The notes beneath the pieces were generated by a model. It worked only from the letters and a program-made list of their open reading frames with translations, did not search any database and was not told the DNA's origin. Shown in pieces: positions 39,201 to 40,401 of a stretch of 64,000 nucleotides of DNA. The stretch covers positions 4,384,001 through 4,448,000 of the forward strand of contig OZ242010.1 in the NCBI GenBank assembly GCA_965204745.1, given 5' to 3'. Both the position numbers and the translations under genes were made by a program. The DNA is from Candidatus Latescibacterota bacterium (lineage in GTDB: Bacteria > Latescibacterota > UBA2968). Every line of letters starts with the position of its first letter. The first letter of the stretch is position 1.

Positions 39201-40114
39201 ACCATGCCGCCGACGGCACTATTACCGCTGACTGTGCCGGTGGCATAGCTAGCGCGTATGGCGGCCCTTGGGGTGCCGCTGTTGCCGTGGTAGCCCACCA
39301 GGCCGCCGACGTAAGCCTGACCGCTGACTGCGCCGGTGACATAGCTAGCGGTTATCGTGCCGCTATTCCAGCCCACCATGCCGCCGAAGCTTATATTATC
39401 ACTAAGGCGGTTACCACGCCCAATGACGTTCACCTCGGAGCGACAGGCGGTAATGGTCGAGTTGCCGTGCGCCAGCCTGCCCACCAGGCCGGCGCTTCGT
39501 GCTAACCCGCTGACCTGTCCGGTGACGTGGATGTGCATGAGCTGTAGATTGTTGCCTTCGCCAACAAGGACAGCGACTTCAGCATCGCCGGTCACATTGG
39601 CGTTCACCAGGCTCAAATTGCGAATCGTGCCGCCCTCGGCATAGCCGAACAGCCCGGTTTTGCTGACGGCAGAGCGGTCGATAAACAGGTTGGAGATGGT
39701 ATTGTCGTTGCCGTGGAAGGTGCCGGTGTATTTCGTCGTGTTGTTACCGATGGGCATCCAGCCTGCGCCGCTGTTCCAGTAGGTGGCGTCTGCTACGGTG
39801 ATTTGACCGTCGCTATTCTCGTCAAAGTCCAAGTTGTTCATCAACTCGTAGCCGGTGCAGGTAGCCGGGCAACCCATGCCCGTGGCGGGGTTGGAAAAGG
39901 CGGTGGTGTAGTTCGTCCAGTCGCTGGCACTGACGCTGCCTCGTGCGCCATCGCCATCGAGGTCATAGCGAATGGCATTCAGTTGCAGCAAGGAGGTAAC
40001 GTCAATCAGGTTGTCGTTGTCCGAATCGTAATCGGTTTGGGCAAAAGCTGGCCCCGATGCCATCAGAAAAACCAGCGCGACCATAGCCAACAAATGAGTG
40101 TAGCGGGACATCAT
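21236..40114 (-). CDS. Giant secreted adhesin-like protein G2 (about 6290 aa): 3 GLUG-like modules, 19 Calx-beta repeats, Ig-like repeats, 2 Fn3, 2 He_PIG-like domains, YWTD propeller, twin dockerin-like C-terminus
   Basis: Uninterrupted ORF; GAGAGGAG RBS before ATG 40114/40111; signal peptide homologous to G1 and G3; repeats counted from the translation. Confidence 0.92.
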   Translation of the reverse strand: MMSRYTHLLAMVALVFLMASGPAFAQTDYDSDNDNLIDVTSLLQLNAIRYDLDGDGARGSVSASDWTNYTTAFSNPATGMGCPATCTGYELMNNLDFDENSDGQITVADATYWNSGAGWMPIGNNTTKYTGTFHGNDNTISNLFIDRSAVSKTGLFGYAEGGTIRNLSLVNANVTGDAEVAVLVGEGNNLQLMHIHVTGQVSGLARSAGLVGRLAHGNSTITACRSEVNVIGRGNRLSDNISFGGMVGWNSGTITASYVTGAVSGQAYVGGLVGYHGNSGTPRAAIRASYATGTVSGNSAVGGMVGANFDQSTITGSYAIGPVSGATPSSVGGLVGTQAFGSSSSHSYYDSTTTGQNDTGKGIPQATSALQSPTGYTGIYATNWNLNLDGQTGNDEPWYFGATDQYPVLKYAGLDTTVQFRLQPASVTLALTPASISEDGGVSTVSATLAHPSNAATTITVSAQAVSPAVAGDFTLSSTATLTIAANATTSTGTVTITAVNNTTDAPDKRVTVSATVAGGNGALAPSAVTLTITDDDDAPSVQLTLSPSSISENGGVSTVTATLAHPSSEATTITVSPVTGGYTVGSDATIAIAAGNTTNASDTVVITAVNNGQIDASNRVVTVTGVASNDHGAGSVTGASLTLQDAGVSLPMVSISSPSVAEGSGSSLEFIVSLSAAGGQQVTVGYTDATTGTATSGTDYTAITDGTLTFAVGVTSRTITVSVTNDALDEDDETVIMTLRSPINAVFAGGRSTLTGTGTIRDNDEEPSLSIADASVTEVDDGDTASLEFIVTLSAVSGRQVTVGYTDAGTGTASSSTDYTAITDGTLTFAAGVTSDTLAVTVTGDDANEPNETVIVTLRNATNATISTTTGTGTINDNDASPTLSGLTLVAAKIVAPPANASYKNPATTYTSFSLGFTSLMPQTTSQLVTINNGPPSDGNSSYFHYVCADKDTRQVNPDGRTGCRQIGRLNHPTSITLTRAEVDFGGVMWHVWEGEGEVTVIREWIPIPVSDAAVTLTPTFSAGTTAYTGAIAQNRNSLRVTPTASSAASTISVSLNAGAATTVASASTHTLSSLSSGANTVSVTVTERSGSLPYTVTLSRGNSVPSFDTPVTTQTFTAGVSSEFQVPAATGGDGVLTYEATGLPAGLTFDADGSGSCTGARTICGTPTAGGTSSVTIYAVDADNDRTPADRGSLSFTINVRGVSISSTNPASLTESNLNSATVTLTLQHALFSSGVSASHFELVTAIPSVSITSLGAGAGGTTSAVLTLSFSGNFTTAQTLAVRVLAAGSNANSVLTTSTVTVSPSAGVTVSRSSLTLEEAPGGANANRGTYTVVLDAQPANNVVIGVSSNNSDVTLSSTSLTFTNGNWNTAQTVTVTAGQDTDDQDDTATVSHSVTTASGDYTTSLSIASVTVTVNDDDMLVRPTNVQVTALVDTLSVSWDAVTGATGYKVQWKSGSEVYNTTDRQASVTGVSHKIPDLTAGTTYTVRVIATRATFEDSEASDSATGVPKAPQPDAPTNVQVTALVDSLEVSWDAVTGATGYKVQWKSGSQAYNTTDRQTSVTGVSHKIPGLTGGTAYTVQVIATRTHADDSEASSEATGTPKPTLSGLALAVTTTKNPPANASYKNPATVYATFSIGFSTLLPQTTAQPVTITGPASDATNEYFHHVCANRDTRQGDPTGRTGCRQISILTHPTSITLTQAEVDSGGVMWHIYDEGSTATVMTAWISIPISESVTLMPSFASSIVNYTGNLPSITDSLHITPTASLGTATISVSINGGAANTVDSGDTHVISSLNRGANTVSVSVTESSQSTAYTVTLSRGNSVPSFGAGSVSDMTFTSGEGISGFRVPAATDGDGALTYEASGLPAGLTFDADGSGSCTGSLARSICGTPTAGGTFPVNIYAVDADDDRTPTDRASLSFTIKVAGVSISESSLTLNEDPGGSNANQGTYTVVLDIQPSSNVVIGVSSNNTDVILSSTSLTFTNGNWDSPQTVTVTANPDTDGLNDTASVTHRVTTASGSYRIGMSIASVSVTVNDDDEPALSIGSPSVVEGSGSSSLEFIVTLSIASSQQVTVDYADATTGTATSGTDYTAITDGTLTLAAGVTRDTIAVPVLADALDEDDETVIVTLSNASNATISTASGTGTITDDDDPPTLSIGSPSVDESDDTETASLEFIVTLSAASGKVVTVGYTDAGTGTATSGTDYTTITGGTLTLAAGVTRDTIAVTVTGDALDEENETVVVTLSSPTNATISTASGTGTITDDDDPPVVSIADASVAEGATGTTPSLEFIVSLSAVSGRQVTVDYADAGTGSATSGTDYTTIAAGTLTFAAGVTSDTLAVSVTGDGTNEPNETVIVRLSNPSNATLSGDGATLTGTGTITNDDGVPSLSISSPSVAEGSGSSSLEFVVTLNPASGQQVTVDYAETATGRTATPGVDYTALASGTLTIAAGVTRDTLAVSVTADALDEANETVVVELSNAVNAMISTATGTGTINDDDDEPTLSIADASVAEGATGATASLEFIVSLSAASGKVVTVVYAETATGRTATPGTDYTAITGGTLTLAAGVTRDTIAVTVRGDALDEENETVVVELSSPTNATISTASGTGTINDDDDEPSLSISSPSVAEGATGTTPSLEFIVTLSAASGKVVTVDYAETASGRTATPGTDYTAIAAGTLTLAAGVTRDTIAVSVTGDDTNEQNETVVVELSNAVNATISTATGTGTITNDDATLVVTLSLSPASISENGGVSTVSAKLSHPSSAATTITVRPLANAYTVGQDSTITIAAGDTTNASDTVAITAVDNGQYEVNRAVTVSGVARNDHGLGSVIGAALTLEDDDAPKMYWADYGTNKIQRADLDGSNVEDLITTGLNNPFGIALDVGGGKMYWTDYGTNKIQRADLDGSNVEDLISGLSRPYGIALDVGGGKMYWTDSRTSRIQRADLNGSNFENLITTGLRTPWAIALDVGGGKMYWTDSGTNKIQRADLDGSNVEDLITTGLDRPWGLALDVGGGKMYWMDQIPAKIQRADLDGSNVEDLITTGLSGIEAIALDVGGGKMYWTDSGTDKIQRADLNGSNVEDLITTGLTTPYGLALDKPTVTLALSPMSISEAGSVSTVSATLSHPSSDATTITVRPVTGAYTVGSDSTITIAAGDTTNASDTVVITAVNNTTDAPAKRLGVSGTVAGDDVASLASRTLTITDDDAAPDVRLSLSPASISENGGVSTVSATLSRPSSAATTITVRPLLGNTYTVAADSTIVIVAGDTTNASDTVVITAVDNAQDDEPNRIVLVSHWAVNDQGVGGLPYANLTLTDDDDPPTLSIGSPSVDESDATETASLEFIVTLSAVSGRQVTVDYAETATGRTATPGVDYTALDSGTLTFAAGVTSDTIAVSVTGDDANEPNETVIVTLSNPSNATISTATGTGTITNDDGVPTLSISSPTVTEGSGSSSLEFIVTLSAASGQQVTVDYAETATGRTATPGADYTAITGGTLTFAAGVTRDTLAVSVLADALDEENETVVVELSNAVNATISTATGTGTITDDDATPTLSIASASVAEGTTGATPSLEFIVSLSAVSGRQVTVDYADATSGTASSGTDYTAITSGTLTLAAGVTRDTLAVTVLGDVLDEDDETVIVTLSSASNATFSGGNATLTGTGTITDDDDPPVVSIADASVTEGDAGETPSLEFIVSLSAASGKVVTVDYVDATSGTASSGTDYTAITAGTLTLAAGVTSDTLAVSVTGDDANEPDETVVVTLSNPSNATFTGGATTLTGTGTITNDDGVPRLSISSPTVAEGSGSSSLEFVVTLNAASGLQVTVDYAETATGRTATPGADYTALASGTLTIAAGVTSDTLAVSVLADALDEDNETVIVELSNAVNAVISTATGTGTITDDDATPTLSIDSPSVAEGTTGATPSLEFIVSLSAVSGRQVTVDYADATSGTATSGTDYTEITSGTLTIAAGVTSDTLAVSVLGDVLDEENETVIVELSSASNATFSGGNATLTGTGTITDDDDEPTLSIADASVTEGDAGETPSLEFIVSLSAASGKVVTVGYADATSGTATSGTDYTAITSGTLTLAAGVTSDTLAVSVTGDDANEPDETVVVELSSAGNATFSGGGTTLTGTGTITNDDGVPRLSISSPTVTEGSGSSSLEFIVTLNEASGQQVTVDYEDAGSGTATSGDDYTAITAGTLTLAAGVTSDTLAVTVLGDALDEDDETVIVTLSSASNAAISTASGTGTITDDDATPTLSIADASVDEGTTGATPSLEFIVSLSAVSGRQVTVAYADATSGTATSGTDYTEITSGTLTIAAGVTSDTLAVSVLGDALDEDDETVIVTLSTPSNATFTGGGSTLTGTGTITDDDDEPTLSIADASVDESDDTETASLEFIVSLSAASTKVVTVGYEDAGTGTATSGTDYTAITAGTLTLAAGVTSDTLAVSVTGDDANEPNETVIVTLSSPSNATLSGGATTLTGTGTIRDDDQIDYDTDNDNLIDVTSLAQLNAIRYDLNGDGAVADSDTMNYNAAFPAAASGMGCPATCTGYELMNNLDFDSDNSGTVDANDHGGAYWNSGAGWTAIGVDASGAATVFSAIFDGNDNTISNLFINLSTSTATGGGFVGLFGNVTGTIRDVGLEDVNITNTRTGASDGRTGALAGRLSSGGTVRGSHVAGGSVTHTTSSTSTSHIGCLLGYSDGTVRDSYATCNLAGTNNYSLNIGGLIGKSDAGGTVDTTYATGTVTSTGTGIGLIAVGGLIGRNEGQISVSYATGNVSGDSRGVVGGLTGKMAGPSFANYATGNVSGSGTGTGATDVQSLNMGGLTGYIEIDSGEYLRASYATGNVSGSGTGVKAGGLIGRVMVNDANSISAVYAIGAVSSTSTGITDTGGLAGVQDGSATPMTNSYWDTQTTGQTTTAGTSSSTTGAQTTSALQSITDYTAGSIYADWNLNLDGQAGNDDPWYFGATNQYPVLKYAGLDTTAQFTLQPAIVTLALMPASISENGGVSTVTATLAHPSSEATTITVRPVAGAYTVGADSTIAIAAGQTANASDTVVITAVDNAQDEADRSVTVSGVAINDQGVGSVTGADLTLMDDDGAPTLSISSPSVAEGDDTETASLEFIVTLSAVSGQQVTVGYEDAGSGTATSGTDYTAITAGTLTLAAGVTSDTIAVTVRGDDAIELNETVVVELSNPVNATLTGEVTTLTGTGTITDDDGSGYDTDNDNLIDITTLAQLNAIRYDLDGDGAQGSVSASDWTNYTTAFPNAATGMGCPATCTGYELMNNLDFDSNGSGSVDAGDDYPNWTAIGVDASGAATVFSAIFDGNDNTISNLFINSSTSTATGGSFVGLFGDVSGTIRDVGLLDVNITNTRTATGTNFGRTGALAGKLSAGGTVRGSYIAGGSVTHTTGSGSFGYIGCLLGYSNGTISDSYATCNVVGTNNNVLNLGGLIGESDVSGSVDSTYATGTVTSSGPGSDVVTAGGLIGYSTVRVSVSYATGNVTATGRGRVGGLIGRMGGSSFANYATGNVSGSGTGTGATTIQSLKVGGLMGEINLDGGEYLRASYATGNVSGSGTGVKAGGLTGRVQVNDANSITAVYAIGAVSNTSTGTTATGGLAGEQGGSATPMTNSYWDTQTTGQTTTAGTSSSTTGAQTTSALQSITGYTVGSIYADWNLNLDGQAGNDDPWNFGATNQYPVLKYAGLDATAQFTLQPAVVTLALMPVSISENGGVSTVTATLAYPSSAATTITVRPVAGAYAVGADSTIAIAAGQMANASDTVVITAVDNAQDELDRSVTVSGMARNDQGVGSVTGADLTLTDDDAAPTVTMAVAPASILENGAISTVTATLSHPSSAATTITVSVTPVQPAVAGDYTLSTADTLIVAAGQTTSTGTVTITTVDNAVTSGNKTVTVSSTVGNSVGAGSVTDATLTIIDDEAAQVTLVLSPSSISENAEVSTITATLDRTVAVATTITVSAEAVSPAEASDFTLSGATTLTIAANVATSTGTVTITAVNNTTDAPDKRVTVSATVAGGNMAVLSSSETLTITDDDQAPDVTLVLTPSSISENAEVSTVSATLSHPSSAITTITVSAEAVSPATASDFTLSSADTLIIAASETTSTGTVTITAADNDARADEKTVTVSATANNTQGITAPAPVTLTITDDETPSANLDVDGDGRVRLFSDIILVIRYVLFFREEALLRGNVIEQQATRTTAQQIEPYLDILVNQNILDVDGDGDVRLFSDIILIIRYVLFFREDALVRGNVIEQQATRTTAQEIEPFIRSLYPDSHFE
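30818..31576 (-). repeat. Six LDL-receptor class B (YWTD) repeats forming one beta-propeller within G2
   Basis: KMYW(T/A/M)DxxxxKIQRADLDGSNVEDLITTGLxxPxGIALDVGGG, 42-43 aa each. Confidence 0.9.

Positions 40115-40401: not shown

Follow-up and report, generated by a model that had tools for sequence, protein, structure and literature searches.

What does a long homopolymer do when it lies between a small leader open reading frame (ORF) and the start of a giant gene? The question is raised by a locus, referred to here as G2, in a 64,000-nucleotide stretch of genomic DNA (the window), which was analyzed together with the rest of the source genome and related assemblies. The host is an uncultured, sponge-associated bacterium.

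Leader cassettes in the window

The 5' region of G2, read on the minus strand, consists, in order, of a promoter-like site, a Shine-Dalgarno (SD) sequence, a leader ORF, a C20 tract, a second SD sequence, and the start of a signal peptide, in agreement with the preliminary description, which had listed a promoter, a ribosome-binding site, a small leader ORF, C20, and the ribosome-binding site of the adhesin. The features of G2 and of two further genes, G1 and G3, are as follows.

40374..40401, minus strand: G2 promoter-like site, TTGACA-N16-TACATT, with TG ahead of the second hexamer (sigma-70-like, 10 of 12 positions)
40303..40309, minus strand: SD sequence GGGAGGG of the G2 leader, 5 nt 5' of the leader ATG
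40149..40297, minus strand: body of the G2 leader ORF, ATG at 40297 plus 49 sense codons
40148..40158, minus strand: palindrome GTACAGTGTAC, adjoining the tract, with GATC 1 nt upstream
40129..40148, minus strand: poly-C tract, C20 in the assembly (G20 on the plus strand), one of 24 leader-linked tracts of C12 to C25
40121..40128, minus strand: SD sequence GAGAGGAG of giant gene G2, immediately 3' of the tract
40109..40114, minus strand: start codon(s) ATGATG of G2, the internal TGA being the leader stop at C19; the signal peptide follows
21236..40114, minus strand: giant gene G2, encoding a secreted repeat protein of 6305 aa whose signal peptide is at about 40040-40114
20892..20959, minus strand: remnant of the G1 leader (its final ~23 codons), with the C run TATCCCCCC, which is interrupted, and an SD sequence
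17205..20891, minus strand: G1, a 1228-aa paralogue immediately downstream of G2
53690..53719, plus strand: G3 promoter-like site, TTGACA, 18 nt, TATTTT
53801..53971, plus strand: G3 leader ORF, 56 aa, with SD sequence AAGGAGG at 53788-53794
53968..63999, plus strand: giant gene G3, which leaves the window (3765 aa in the genome; Fn3 and GLUG domains)

The G2 promoter-like site is the only sigma-70-like match within positions 39950-40650, and its TTGACA is kept at the equivalent position in most cassette copies; because ~225 nt separate this site from the tract downstream of it, the tract would act within the transcript. The leader peptide reads MLTAIFSRCSNLFG...KQSVRVISTV, followed by a Tyr whose codon ends with the first C of the tract. 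At 20 C, a length that is an assembly call, the leader ends in ...STVYPPPPPPREESD-MMSRY and is fused to the 6305-aa ORF, so that 61 residues precede its first Met. Read from the letters, C19 gives ATA-TGA with an ATGA overlap and C21 gives GTC-TGA-T-ATG, the same outcomes for C19, C20, and C21 as had been derived previously. Since both nonfused frames stop at the ATG or 1 base before it, the G2 start codon is occluded in no frame. The scanned part of the G2 product (its first 3000 residues) contains Calx-beta, LDL-receptor class B, Fn3, cadherin-like, and GLUG domains.

In G3, the long tract is replaced by CCCC (53947-53950), and the stop TGA, within ATGA at 53968-53971, overlaps the ATG of the gene (53968). 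The G1 remnant, in which neither a promoter nor a leader start is present, likewise ends in an ATGA overlap with the ATG at 20891. The leader stops of both genes thus overlap the adhesin starts, as the earlier reading had it.

Copies across the genome and in related species

The 5.48-Mb genome carries 34 cassette copies and four deletion derivatives, a substantial extension of the two copies and one remnant noted before. The best reading is that the 5' region of G2 belongs to a portable expression cassette that stands in front of about three dozen genes for giant surface proteins. The N-termini encoded downstream of it are of at least four unrelated kinds, and all genes examined encode large secreted repeat proteins (giant, with Fn3, Calx-beta, or cadherin-like domains), which bears out the expectation that the leader precedes such proteins elsewhere; cassette-headed genes make up 4.6 to 5.3% of the genome. 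Runs of G or C of at least 12 bases number 30, and 24 of these lie behind a cassette leader at the same exact position (C12 to C25), against a chance expectation from base composition of 2.0 such runs, and 0.05 runs of at least 15 bases, per genome. The distribution of run lengths is bimodal, with sparse runs of 8 to 10 bases and then those of 12 to 25. The other 10 of the 34 copies have short, nonslippery tracts (C4 to C6 or interrupted runs) that encode one or two Pro only, so polyproline, pointed out previously at G2, is not a feature of the whole family.

A GGAGG-type motif is found 5' of the leader ATG in the 40 aligned copies, which include those from two other species. The leader frame is open in 39 of the 40, whereas stops interrupt the remaining two frames in 40 and 37 copies, respectively; leader lengths are 144, 156, or 177 nt, differing by multiples of 3, in all copies except a single outlier of 116 nt. 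Stops occur in 0 of 32 canonical leaders, compared with 5.5 ± 1.6 in column shuffles (0 of 2000 shuffles as low), and among codons that differ by a single base the proportion of synonymous differences is 0.39 in frame versus 0.25 and 0.22 in the shifted frames. Judging from entropies of 0.61, 0.51, and 0.60 at the three codon positions, the peptide sequence is weakly constrained, although the open frame appears to be under selection. The leader is thus a real, conserved, and apparently translated ORF; its family, which the preliminary description did not recognize, has no match in any library searched.

Fourteen pairs of paralogues are at least 90% identical, ungapped, across 130 bases of flanking sequence; in 13 of these pairs the tracts are unequal in length, the largest difference being 13 bases. 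By this measure the C tract changes far more quickly than the sequence around it, and the earlier idea of a variable tract holds between paralogues. Both MutS and MutL are encoded in the genome, and the tracts are therefore not owed to missing mismatch repair.

Two congeners, G018 and G016, share the layout of the source genome (G000) despite only ~70% nucleotide identity. Their tracts range from C16 to C28: C28, 16, 17, 16, 20, 16, 24, and 17 in G018 and C17 in G016. The palindrome, GTACA-G/A-TGTAC, differs among the three species in its center base only. The 33 long tracts listed from these genomes are all uninterrupted C, with no CCN mixtures, which argues that slippage is either what selection acts on or what renews the tracts, and against selection for prolines. 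No credible cassette match was found among 50 further genomes of the order. Poly-C/G runs in five other genomes of the order are scaffold-gap junk. In other assemblies, gene callers have predicted leader ORFs with 4 to 9 consecutive prolines; public short-read contigs stop at the tract, and none of those listed bridges it.

Reading frames and the proposed role of the tract

With tract lengths and all frame assignments taken from single-contig MAG-type assemblies, 26 of the 34 copies offer one fused frame, one that stops at the start codon, and one that overshoots it, while four, including G2, offer one fused frame and two that stop at the start. Nearly every copy conserves a strong, correctly spaced second SD sequence together with a stop of the ATGA or TAAnATG form, and ATGA is kept across several different signal-peptide types. 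The overshoot frame is used by 5 of the 38 copies (binomial P = 0.004 versus 1/3) and by 1 of the 14 locked ones (P = 0.027), values that overstate the case, as paralogues are nonindependent. The 24 long-tract copies divide into 9 coupled, 11 fused, and 4 overshoot, which is not significantly different from random (P = 0.059).

Fusion is found in 15 of the 34 copies and in all four deletion derivatives, two of which lack the second SD sequence and ATG. It is permanent in 4 of the 10 short-tract copies and in the four derivatives, and an in-frame fusion as the OFF state is not supported, since these permanently fused copies retain ORFs of 1510 to 6972 aa. Of 25 family members from other assemblies, 8 are likewise leader-protein fusions with long open frames; the fusion junctions of two of them, P0031 and P0039, are matched in G000 copies, and P0039 keeps its junction despite several substitutions, which suggests an old and retained fusion. 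The persistence of permanently fused copies and the recurrence of two junctions elsewhere speak against the proposal that the C20 fusion disables G2 by burying its signal peptide. In five locked copies, including G3, the leader is permanently out of frame and stops on ATGA, and ORFs of 1228 to 3765 aa are kept. Expression appears possible in at least two of the three frames.

A role of the tract as a switch or tuner, suggested previously for G2, is still the best reading, because the leader ORF is conserved, the tract evolves fast, and the cassette always lies ahead of large secreted proteins, but it holds for cassettes throughout the genome, not just for G2, and does not include fusion as the OFF state. 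The explanation we favor, with a probability of about 0.55, is that the cassettes are slipped-strand contingency loci within a translationally coupled leader, ahead of giant surface-protein genes. The poly-C would be the slipped-strand site in the last leader codons, 14 to 17 nt 5' of the gene start, and its length modulo 3 would set the end point of leader ribosomes. Ribosomes terminating at the start codon (ATGA or TAAnATG) would allow termination-reinitiation coupling; in-frame read-through would yield a precursor whose N terminus is extended by a basic stretch of ~60 residues, to be removed by signal peptidase together with the signal peptide; wrong-frame overshoot by 67 to 127 nt past the start would occlude initiation and leave a long mRNA untranslated. 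The predicted output is accordingly low for overshoot and on for the coupled and fused frames. We infer here a useful slippage rate in vivo, translation of the leader, and an effect of frame on output. Against a switch, G2 has no obvious OFF frame, and the strong SD sequence of each gene might initiate without the leader. Tracts of C16 to C28 are very slippery, and RNA polymerase or the ribosome may therefore slip too (CCC-C re-pairing, tRNA-Pro), blurring the frame set by the DNA.

Alternative explanations and known systems

Poly(C) is a classical activator of Rho, and the tract could conceivably be mainly a cis-acting RNA or translation element (Rho loading or EF-P-dependent polyproline stalling) rather than a DNA switch, a possibility that we hold clearly less probable than contingency loci. 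Leader ribosomes would perhaps mask the tract and keep transcription and translation of the 5- to 19-kb gene coupled; expression might then depend on how much translation the cell can sustain, on EF-P, and on the supply of proline, in the manner of tnaC and mgtL, with length differences being either a tolerated by-product of slippage or, speculatively, analogue tuning of the stall or of Rho affinity. Rho, EF-P, and tRNA-Pro GGG are all encoded in the genome, the tract is transcribed inside a predicted translated ORF immediately 5' of a very long gene, and a near-random frame split among long-tract copies is what would be expected if frame were unimportant. In excerpts of a study of Escherichia coli without EF-P, polyproline stalling and rut sites cut expression ~30-fold, and a Rho inhibitor restored it (PMC5021804). 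However, the 10 short-tract or interrupted-run copies and the four tract-deleted ones head intact giant ORFs, so polyproline and poly(C) are dispensable for gene persistence; neither a rut site nor a proline stall needs a pure homopolymer, whereas 33 of 33 long tracts are pure C, and the underrepresented overshoot frame (5 of 38) suggests that frame matters.

Classical intragenic phase variation, with the leader ATG as the true start, the leader as an extended basic N-region of the signal peptide, the in-frame state ON, out-of-frame states OFF or reduced, and the second SD/ATG as a secondary start, is unlikely. The fusions in G000 and in other assemblies, the matching P0031 and P0039 junctions, and the two derivatives without a second SD/ATG all fit it, but the five copies locked out of frame, including G3, keep their ORFs, the second SD sequence and ATGA/TAAnATG stop are conserved in nearly all copies, and the peptide is too evenly variable by codon position to look strongly constrained. 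An artefact, in which tracts or their lengths are not real, is very improbable. Homopolymer lengths are unreliable in long-read assemblies, where such runs are error-prone, short-read contigs end at the tract, and five other genomes of the order contain scaffold-gap junk; nevertheless, 33 tracts occupy the identical cassette position in three independent chromosome-level assemblies, never at contig ends and with unique sequence on their flanks, and gene callers elsewhere gave leaders with runs of prolines. The tracts exist, and doubt is confined to their exact lengths.

The contingency loci favored here have partial parallels. In Haemophilus influenzae lic1 and lic2, a repeat near the 5' end likewise governs the frame, setting which upstream start is used and giving more than two expression states, but the repeats are tetranucleotides within the gene's own 5' coding region, and there is no separate SD-bearing leader ORF stopping on the gene start codon. 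The regulatory leader peptides of tnaC, mgtL, and SecM, tied to Rho or ribosome stalling, are similar in being short SD-bearing ORFs directly 5' of the gene they regulate, with a 3'-terminal stalling motif and an otherwise weakly constrained sequence; in the cassette, however, the stall motif is missing in 10 of 34 copies, and an SD-sequestering hairpin is unsupported (RNA folds were no better than shuffles in three of four copies). To our knowledge, no member of this class has a hypermutable homopolymer. Campylobacter and Helicobacter tracts are typically G8 to G13, scattered in unrelated genes and promoters of genomes without MutS/MutL-type repair, whereas the cassette tracts are C12 to C28, all in one conserved leader ahead of the gene and not inside it, in a genome with MutS and MutL and with at least two of three frames apparently compatible with expression. 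The poly-C tracts of Bordetella pertussis fim genes sit between promoter elements, in contrast to the position of the cassette tract, ~225 nt downstream of its promoter-like site and 14 to 17 nt from the start codon.

The likeness to fim, whose tracts are the subject of PMC1891110, is a long variable poly-C upstream of a surface-protein gene. The portions of PMC8355987 and PMC2823697 drawn on here describe poly-G/C contingency loci, with ~20 to 30 tracts per genome, in Campylobacter and Helicobacter; like the cassettes, these are numerous G/C homopolymers linked to surface-structure genes, whose frame is shifted by length changes through slipped-strand mispairing. In H. influenzae hmw1A, according to excerpts of PMC12721329, a heptamer repeat in the transcribed 5' leader of the gene, which encodes a large adhesin, tunes adhesin level after transcription initiation, a likeness in layout and action; that repeat is an untranslated long hairpin with a G-rich arm, cut by RNase III, unlike the cassette repeat, which lies in a predicted translated ORF and whose folds were no better than shuffles in three of four copies.

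Taken together, the cassettes look like mutational switches that act on the cell surface and are spread over the whole genome. If so, with ~24 such loci, a population could display many combinations of surface proteins.

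Organization and distribution of the poly-C cassette

Upstream of the giant surface-protein gene G2, a promoter-like site, a Shine-Dalgarno (SD) sequence, a short leader ORF, a palindrome, a poly-C tract, and a second SD sequence succeed one another up to the gene start. This arrangement, referred to here as the cassette, has the following features in the window:

40401-40374, minus strand: promoter-like site of G2, TTGACA-N16-TACATT, the sole such site within 39950-40650
40309-40303, minus strand: SD sequence of the G2 leader, GGGAGGG
40297, minus strand: ATG of the G2 leader, followed by 49 sense codons
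40158-40148, minus strand: palindrome of G2, GTACAGTGTAC
40148-40129, minus strand: poly-C tract, C20 in G2
40128-40121, minus strand: second SD sequence of G2, GAGAGGAG
40114-40109, minus strand: ATGATG at the G2 start
directly after ATGATG, minus strand: typical signal peptide of G2, MMSRYTHLLAMVALVFLMASGPAFA/Q
ending at 21236, minus strand: G2 ORF, 6305 aa
53801-53971, plus strand: leader of the giant gene G3, with only CCCC where the tract would be and a stop that overlaps the ATG at 53968

Reading of the minus strand confirmed the order of leader, C20 run, and adhesin ribosome-binding site given for G2 in the preliminary description, along with its claim that at C20 the leader and the gene are in frame, with 61 residues ahead of the first Met. 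The letters also bear out its statements that 19 C's would bring the leader to a stop at ATA-TGA (an ATGA overlap) and 21 C's to a stop at GTC-TGA-T-ATG. G3 shares with G2 the layout of promoter-like site, SD sequence, and leader; the third giant gene, G1, retains only the last ~23 leader codons and lacks both a promoter of its own and the leader start. In both, the leader stop overlaps the gene start (ATGA), as had been described. A terminator-like hairpin, AGCCCGG...CCGGGCT followed by TTTT, is located between the G2 stop codon and the G1 leader remnant (window 21000-21030, minus strand). Upstream of the G2 promoter, window positions ~40440-40660 contain two copies of a direct repeat of ~35 nt and heptamer arrays (GACTACT-like and CCTCTTA-like); contig depth in bins 40440-40610 is 100 to 1000 times that of the flanks in 4 of 4 runs, and this element is therefore highly repeated in those metagenomes. 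Other short-repeat arrays occupy the equivalent place in the congener G018.

The window is part of a single 5.48-Mb contig (56.5% G+C) whose G/C homopolymers are bimodal in length, with 19 runs of 8 to 10 bases and 30 runs of 12 to 25, where about 2.0 runs of ≥12 bases and 0.05 runs of ≥15 are expected by chance. The same leader precedes, and an SD sequence and a signal-peptide start follow, 24 of these 30 long runs. An anchor search of the genome recovered 34 cassette copies; 24 have tracts of C12-C25, and the remaining 10 have C4-C6 or a run with interruptions (CCCCTCCC, for example). In four additional copies, all outside the window, deletions have taken out the tract together with the 3' portion of the leader, at the following genome positions:

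4580244, plus strand: deletion copy
2402441, minus strand: deletion copy
1650935, minus strand: deletion copy
183376, minus strand: deletion copy

In these copies, which have lost the tract with or without the second SD sequence and ATG, leader codons 1-37/45 continue in frame into the signal-peptide core of 1795-6972-aa ORFs. Two of the junctions recur in P0031 and P0039, leader-family proteins from other assemblies, the latter with several substitutions.

Deletion copies apart, the ORFs downstream of the cassettes have a median length of 2164 aa and a maximum of 6305 aa; cassette-headed ORFs account for 4.6% of the genome (5.3% including the deletion copies). The expectation that leader matches precede large secreted proteins was borne out, every scanned cargo protein being a large repeat protein, with Fn3, Calx-beta, cadherin-like, He_PIG, GLUG, LDL-receptor-B, or dockerin domains. 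At least four unrelated N-termini follow the cassette (MMPRY/MTSRY..., MVRFIF..., MTMFSRIY..., and MIRALRF..., the last in G018), which therefore behaves as a portable 5' module and not merely as the shared head of one paralogue family. Two copies, at genome positions 276174 (plus strand) and 4491904 (plus strand), head nothing longer than ORFs of 50 and 140 aa, whatever the frame, and represent either broken genes or further assembly frameshifts. Six more long G/C runs lack the leader (genome positions 732472, 21 bases; 1578675, 18; 1833000, 19; 3250395, 13; 4295687, 13; and 4540232, 16). All six are intergenic or at gene borders, three of them 34-82 nt from the nearest ORF start, and the two C13 runs (3250395 and 4295687) lie within duplicated sequence; these runs may be independent contingency sites.

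Relatives were compared by searching 41 related genomes at the DNA level and 53 genomes of the order with the leader profile. Among the genomes searched, to which its absence elsewhere applies (many of those lacking a match being complete single contigs), the leader was found only in the window's own genome (38 matches) and in the congeners G018 (15 matches, about 12 of them credible) and G016 (1 strong match). A match in G026, another member of the order (E = 0.005), covers 16 residues and is regarded as due to chance. The congeners keep the same order of parts, with tracts of C28, 16, 17, 16, 20, 16, 24, and 17 in G018 and C17 in G016, and their cassettes show ~70% nucleotide identity. Poly-C runs in four genomes from other genera of the order (G031, G035, G037, and G040) were rejected as assembly junk: in these short-read MAGs of a sister genus, long G and C runs lie in clusters beside stretches of N and at the ends of contigs (e.g., stretch L059, 1500-1740). 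Homopolymer censuses across MAGs need a filter against such runs.

A search of 1.84 billion representative proteins with the leader profile produced 31 hits at E ≤1e-3. Of these, 25 begin at residue 1, including 8 fused to proteins of 306-2446 aa and 17 stand-alone ORFs of 36-122 aa. Searches with Pfam and NCBIfam profiles returned 0 families for the leader, and an Atlas search gave no usable hit; the leader, which the preliminary description had not recognized, is thus without a match in Pfam, NCBIfam, Rfam, or Atlas. Sequence of the window is present in 17 runs from 7 studies, comprising sponge and marine metagenomes and coded organisms; none of those listed is an RNA run. In JGI metagenome contigs, the exact anchor followed by CCCC returned nothing, and the degenerate anchor followed by C10 returned two contigs, which lack the leader and are dismissed as chance matches.

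Probable leader translation and predicted consequences of tract length

The leader has its own SD sequence, start codon, and open frame, as well as a stop that overlaps or abuts the gene start, and is predicted to be a translationally coupled upstream ORF (termination-reinitiation). A GGAGG-type SD sequence is found 5-8 nt before the ATG in each of the 40 copies listed. All but one of these 40 keep the leader frame open; stops are present in the other two frames in 40 and 37 of the 40. Leader lengths differ by multiples of three (144 nt in 32 copies, 156 in 6, and 177 in 1), with one outlier of 116 nt. None of the 32 canonical copies contains a stop, compared to 5.5 ± 1.6 copies in column shuffles (none of the 2000 was as low). 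Among single-base codon differences, the synonymous fraction is 0.39 in the leader frame versus 0.25 and 0.22 in the shifted frames. Variability is nearly flat by codon position (0.61/0.51/0.60), and fourfold sites are only slightly freer than positions 1 and 2 (conservation of 0.76 versus 0.84); both count against a conserved peptide. Our reading is that selection probably acts on ribosome passage and not on the peptide sequence, as in many regulatory leaders, for which weak constraint on the peptide is usual. Some leader blocks seem to be constrained as nucleotides, above all the palindrome, which differs between species at its centre only (G/A, giving Val/Met). Directly before the tract, a block with GATC and two GTAC sites (TGATCAGTACAGTGTAC; window 40148-40165, minus strand) is kept in three species and could be a protein site, a methylation site, or a small hairpin beside the slippery run. 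The left palindrome arm is degenerate (ATATA or ATACA) in 3 of the 10 short-tract copies.

The tract is located within the leader ORF, 14-17 nt ahead of the gene start codon. By the frame tally, in which a few start codons were mis-picked by the script, the three frames of 26 of the 34 copies lead to three outcomes: fusion of the leader with the gene; coupling, where the stop coincides with the start codon or precedes it by 1 nt (ATGA or TAAnATG); and overshoot, a passage of 67-127 nt across the start in the wrong frame. Four copies, including G2, have two coupled frames and no overshoot frame. At the length assembled, the leader ends in ATGA or TAAnATG in 14 of the 34 copies, and 32 offer such an ending in one frame or more; the assembled lengths thus place 14 copies in the coupled state, 15 in the fused state, and 5 in overshoot.

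In the preliminary description, fusion buries the signal peptide behind 61 residues. The idea that this disables the gene is not supported: 4 of the 10 short-tract copies and 4 of 4 deletion copies are locked in the fused state with long open frames, so fusion is evidently tolerated. The fused form would carry a basic extension, and, by signal-peptidase logic, cleavage at AFA/Q would yield the same mature protein. Overshoot is under-represented (5 of all 38 copies, P = 0.004; 1 of the 14 that are locked, P = 0.027; 4 of the 24 with long tracts, P = 0.059), with P values that refer to related paralogues and to lengths that are assembly calls. Because overshoot is rare and fusion is tolerated, overshoot is proposed to be a low or off state, and coupling and fusion would be on states, possibly of different levels. 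From these observed frame outcomes, we infer that a change in tract length alters expression. The leader may instead be the true N-terminus of these proteins, in which case the system would represent classical intragenic phase variation, but in five locked copies the leader ends on ATGA, and conservation extends to the second SD sequence.

Tract variability and alternative mechanisms

Homopolymer slippage becomes frequent at about 8 or more bases, a length exceeded by C20 in G2, by C12-C25 in the 24 linked tracts, and by C16-C28 in the two congeners. Among near-identical paralogue pairs (130 flanking bases, ungapped, ≥90% identity), 13 of 14 differ in tract length, by 1-13 bases, and three G018 copies with 97-98.5% identical flanks have C28, C16, and C17. 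Long tracts are all pure C; short ones show C-to-T interruptions, as expected of decayed tracts. The genome encodes MutS and MutL. Judged by length and placement, the tract is a candidate slipped-strand contingency locus. Assembly artefact is excluded as the origin of the tracts, although not of their exact lengths. The public runs consist of assembled contigs and not raw reads; in four runs from four studies (Logan contigs, where the repetitive region falls into short pieces), none of the pieces listed spans 40129-40148, among them X1 record 7, which ends at 40148, X7 record 22, which starts at 40161, and X8 record 31, which starts at 40168. The pieces listed are only the longest, with 1746 more beyond them, and have no bearing either way on tract heterogeneity.

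The run may instead act chiefly as RNA and as codons, combining a poly(C) Rho entry site with a polyproline stall, with leader translation and EF-P as the gate. The genome encodes Rho, EF-P, and tRNA-Pro(GGG), and such coupling is documented in E. coli (PMC5021804); yet 14 copies manage without the run. The suggestion that the tract encodes polyproline holds where the tract is long and fails as a family-wide arrest motif, as 10 of the 34 copies encode one or two Pro at this position. Leaders of the SecM, MifM, or TnaC type would be expected to keep the arrest motif in all members. It is unlikely, at roughly one chance in seven, that slippage and Rho control are combined, with the frame randomised at three levels and tied to the control of transcription. 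Tracts of C16-C28 would then be slippery for DNA polymerase, RNA polymerase, and tRNA-Pro on the ribosome, each transcript and ribosome would exit the leader in a probabilistic frame, and naked poly(C) RNA would recruit Rho unless covered by leader ribosomes; tract length would set, in analogue fashion, the fraction of transcripts of a 5-19-kb gene that are completed, with EF-P and proline status as physiological inputs. If true, this would be a regulatory device undescribed for any bacterial gene family.

Other readings of the region as RNA or promoter were rejected. Rfam 15 covariance models gave no match at E ≤1 on either strand of 39000-41500, in 3 of 4 copies single folds do not outperform shuffled sequences (z of +1.2 to +1.5), and the RNAalifold consensus energy is just -3.4 kcal/mol. 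Sequestration of the SD sequence by the C run is not a general feature, as pairing of the run with GGGGG occurs only in copies with a GGGGG SD sequence and is absent in G2; an SD hairpin opened by a ribosome stalled on an arrest peptide finds no support in the folds of 3 of 4 copies. A promoter-spacer switch is discounted because the only promoter-like sites are upstream of the leader, away from the tract; a simple consensus scan, which other promoter types may escape, found no promoter within the leader. A possible 9-bp long-range RNA helix, for which the case is weak, would join the conserved 5' block at leader nt 23-31 (GCUGUUUGA) with nt 137-146 (UCAGUACAGU), just before the tract (window ~40267-40275 paired with ~40152-40161, minus strand), and has an equivalent in every copy. 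In register, 330 of 360 cells are paired, versus 84-187 when slid, and one position is C-G in 19 copies, U-G in 12, and U-A in 8; in 12 type-B copies two of the pairs are broken. In 150 nt, chance alone could produce such a helix, and the sequences used to assess the structure are those that yielded it.

Relation to known contingency loci and significance

Among the well-known homopolymer contingency loci are those of Campylobacter, Helicobacter, Neisseria, Bordetella, and Haemophilus (for the last, PMC12721329). The present case appears to be new in where the tract lies, namely in the final codons of a leader ORF that is separate, bears its own SD sequence, and is built so that its stop falls on the start of the gene; in the reuse of a single cassette at about 38 loci, with tract lengths of C12-C28 and mismatch-repair genes present; and in its setting, an uncultured sponge-associated lineage as host with giant eukaryote-like repeat proteins as cargo. 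Among the open-access papers searched, none was found that links Latescibacteria or sponge symbionts with phase variation or that describes a homopolymer in a coupled leader ORF. The design, a portable leader cassette with very long tracts, three outcomes, and mismatch repair present, is unusual and provides a concrete example, open to testing, of an upstream ORF in which a mutable repeat dictates where the stop falls. It also has a practical consequence: in automated annotation of these genomes, whether a given gene receives a 60-residue N-terminal extension will depend on the length of a homopolymer, which assemblies get wrong.

Eukaryote-like repeat proteins (Fn3, cadherin, LDL-receptor, and similar) are believed to serve sponge symbionts in dealing with their host, and combinatorial surface variation has so far been documented mainly in animal pathogens. 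Single eukaryote-like repeat genes are reported to let bacteria evade sponge phagocytosis (PMC13747020). If ~24 giant proteins each stand behind a hypermutable switch, an uncultured candidate-phylum symbiont would practise combinatorial surface variation.
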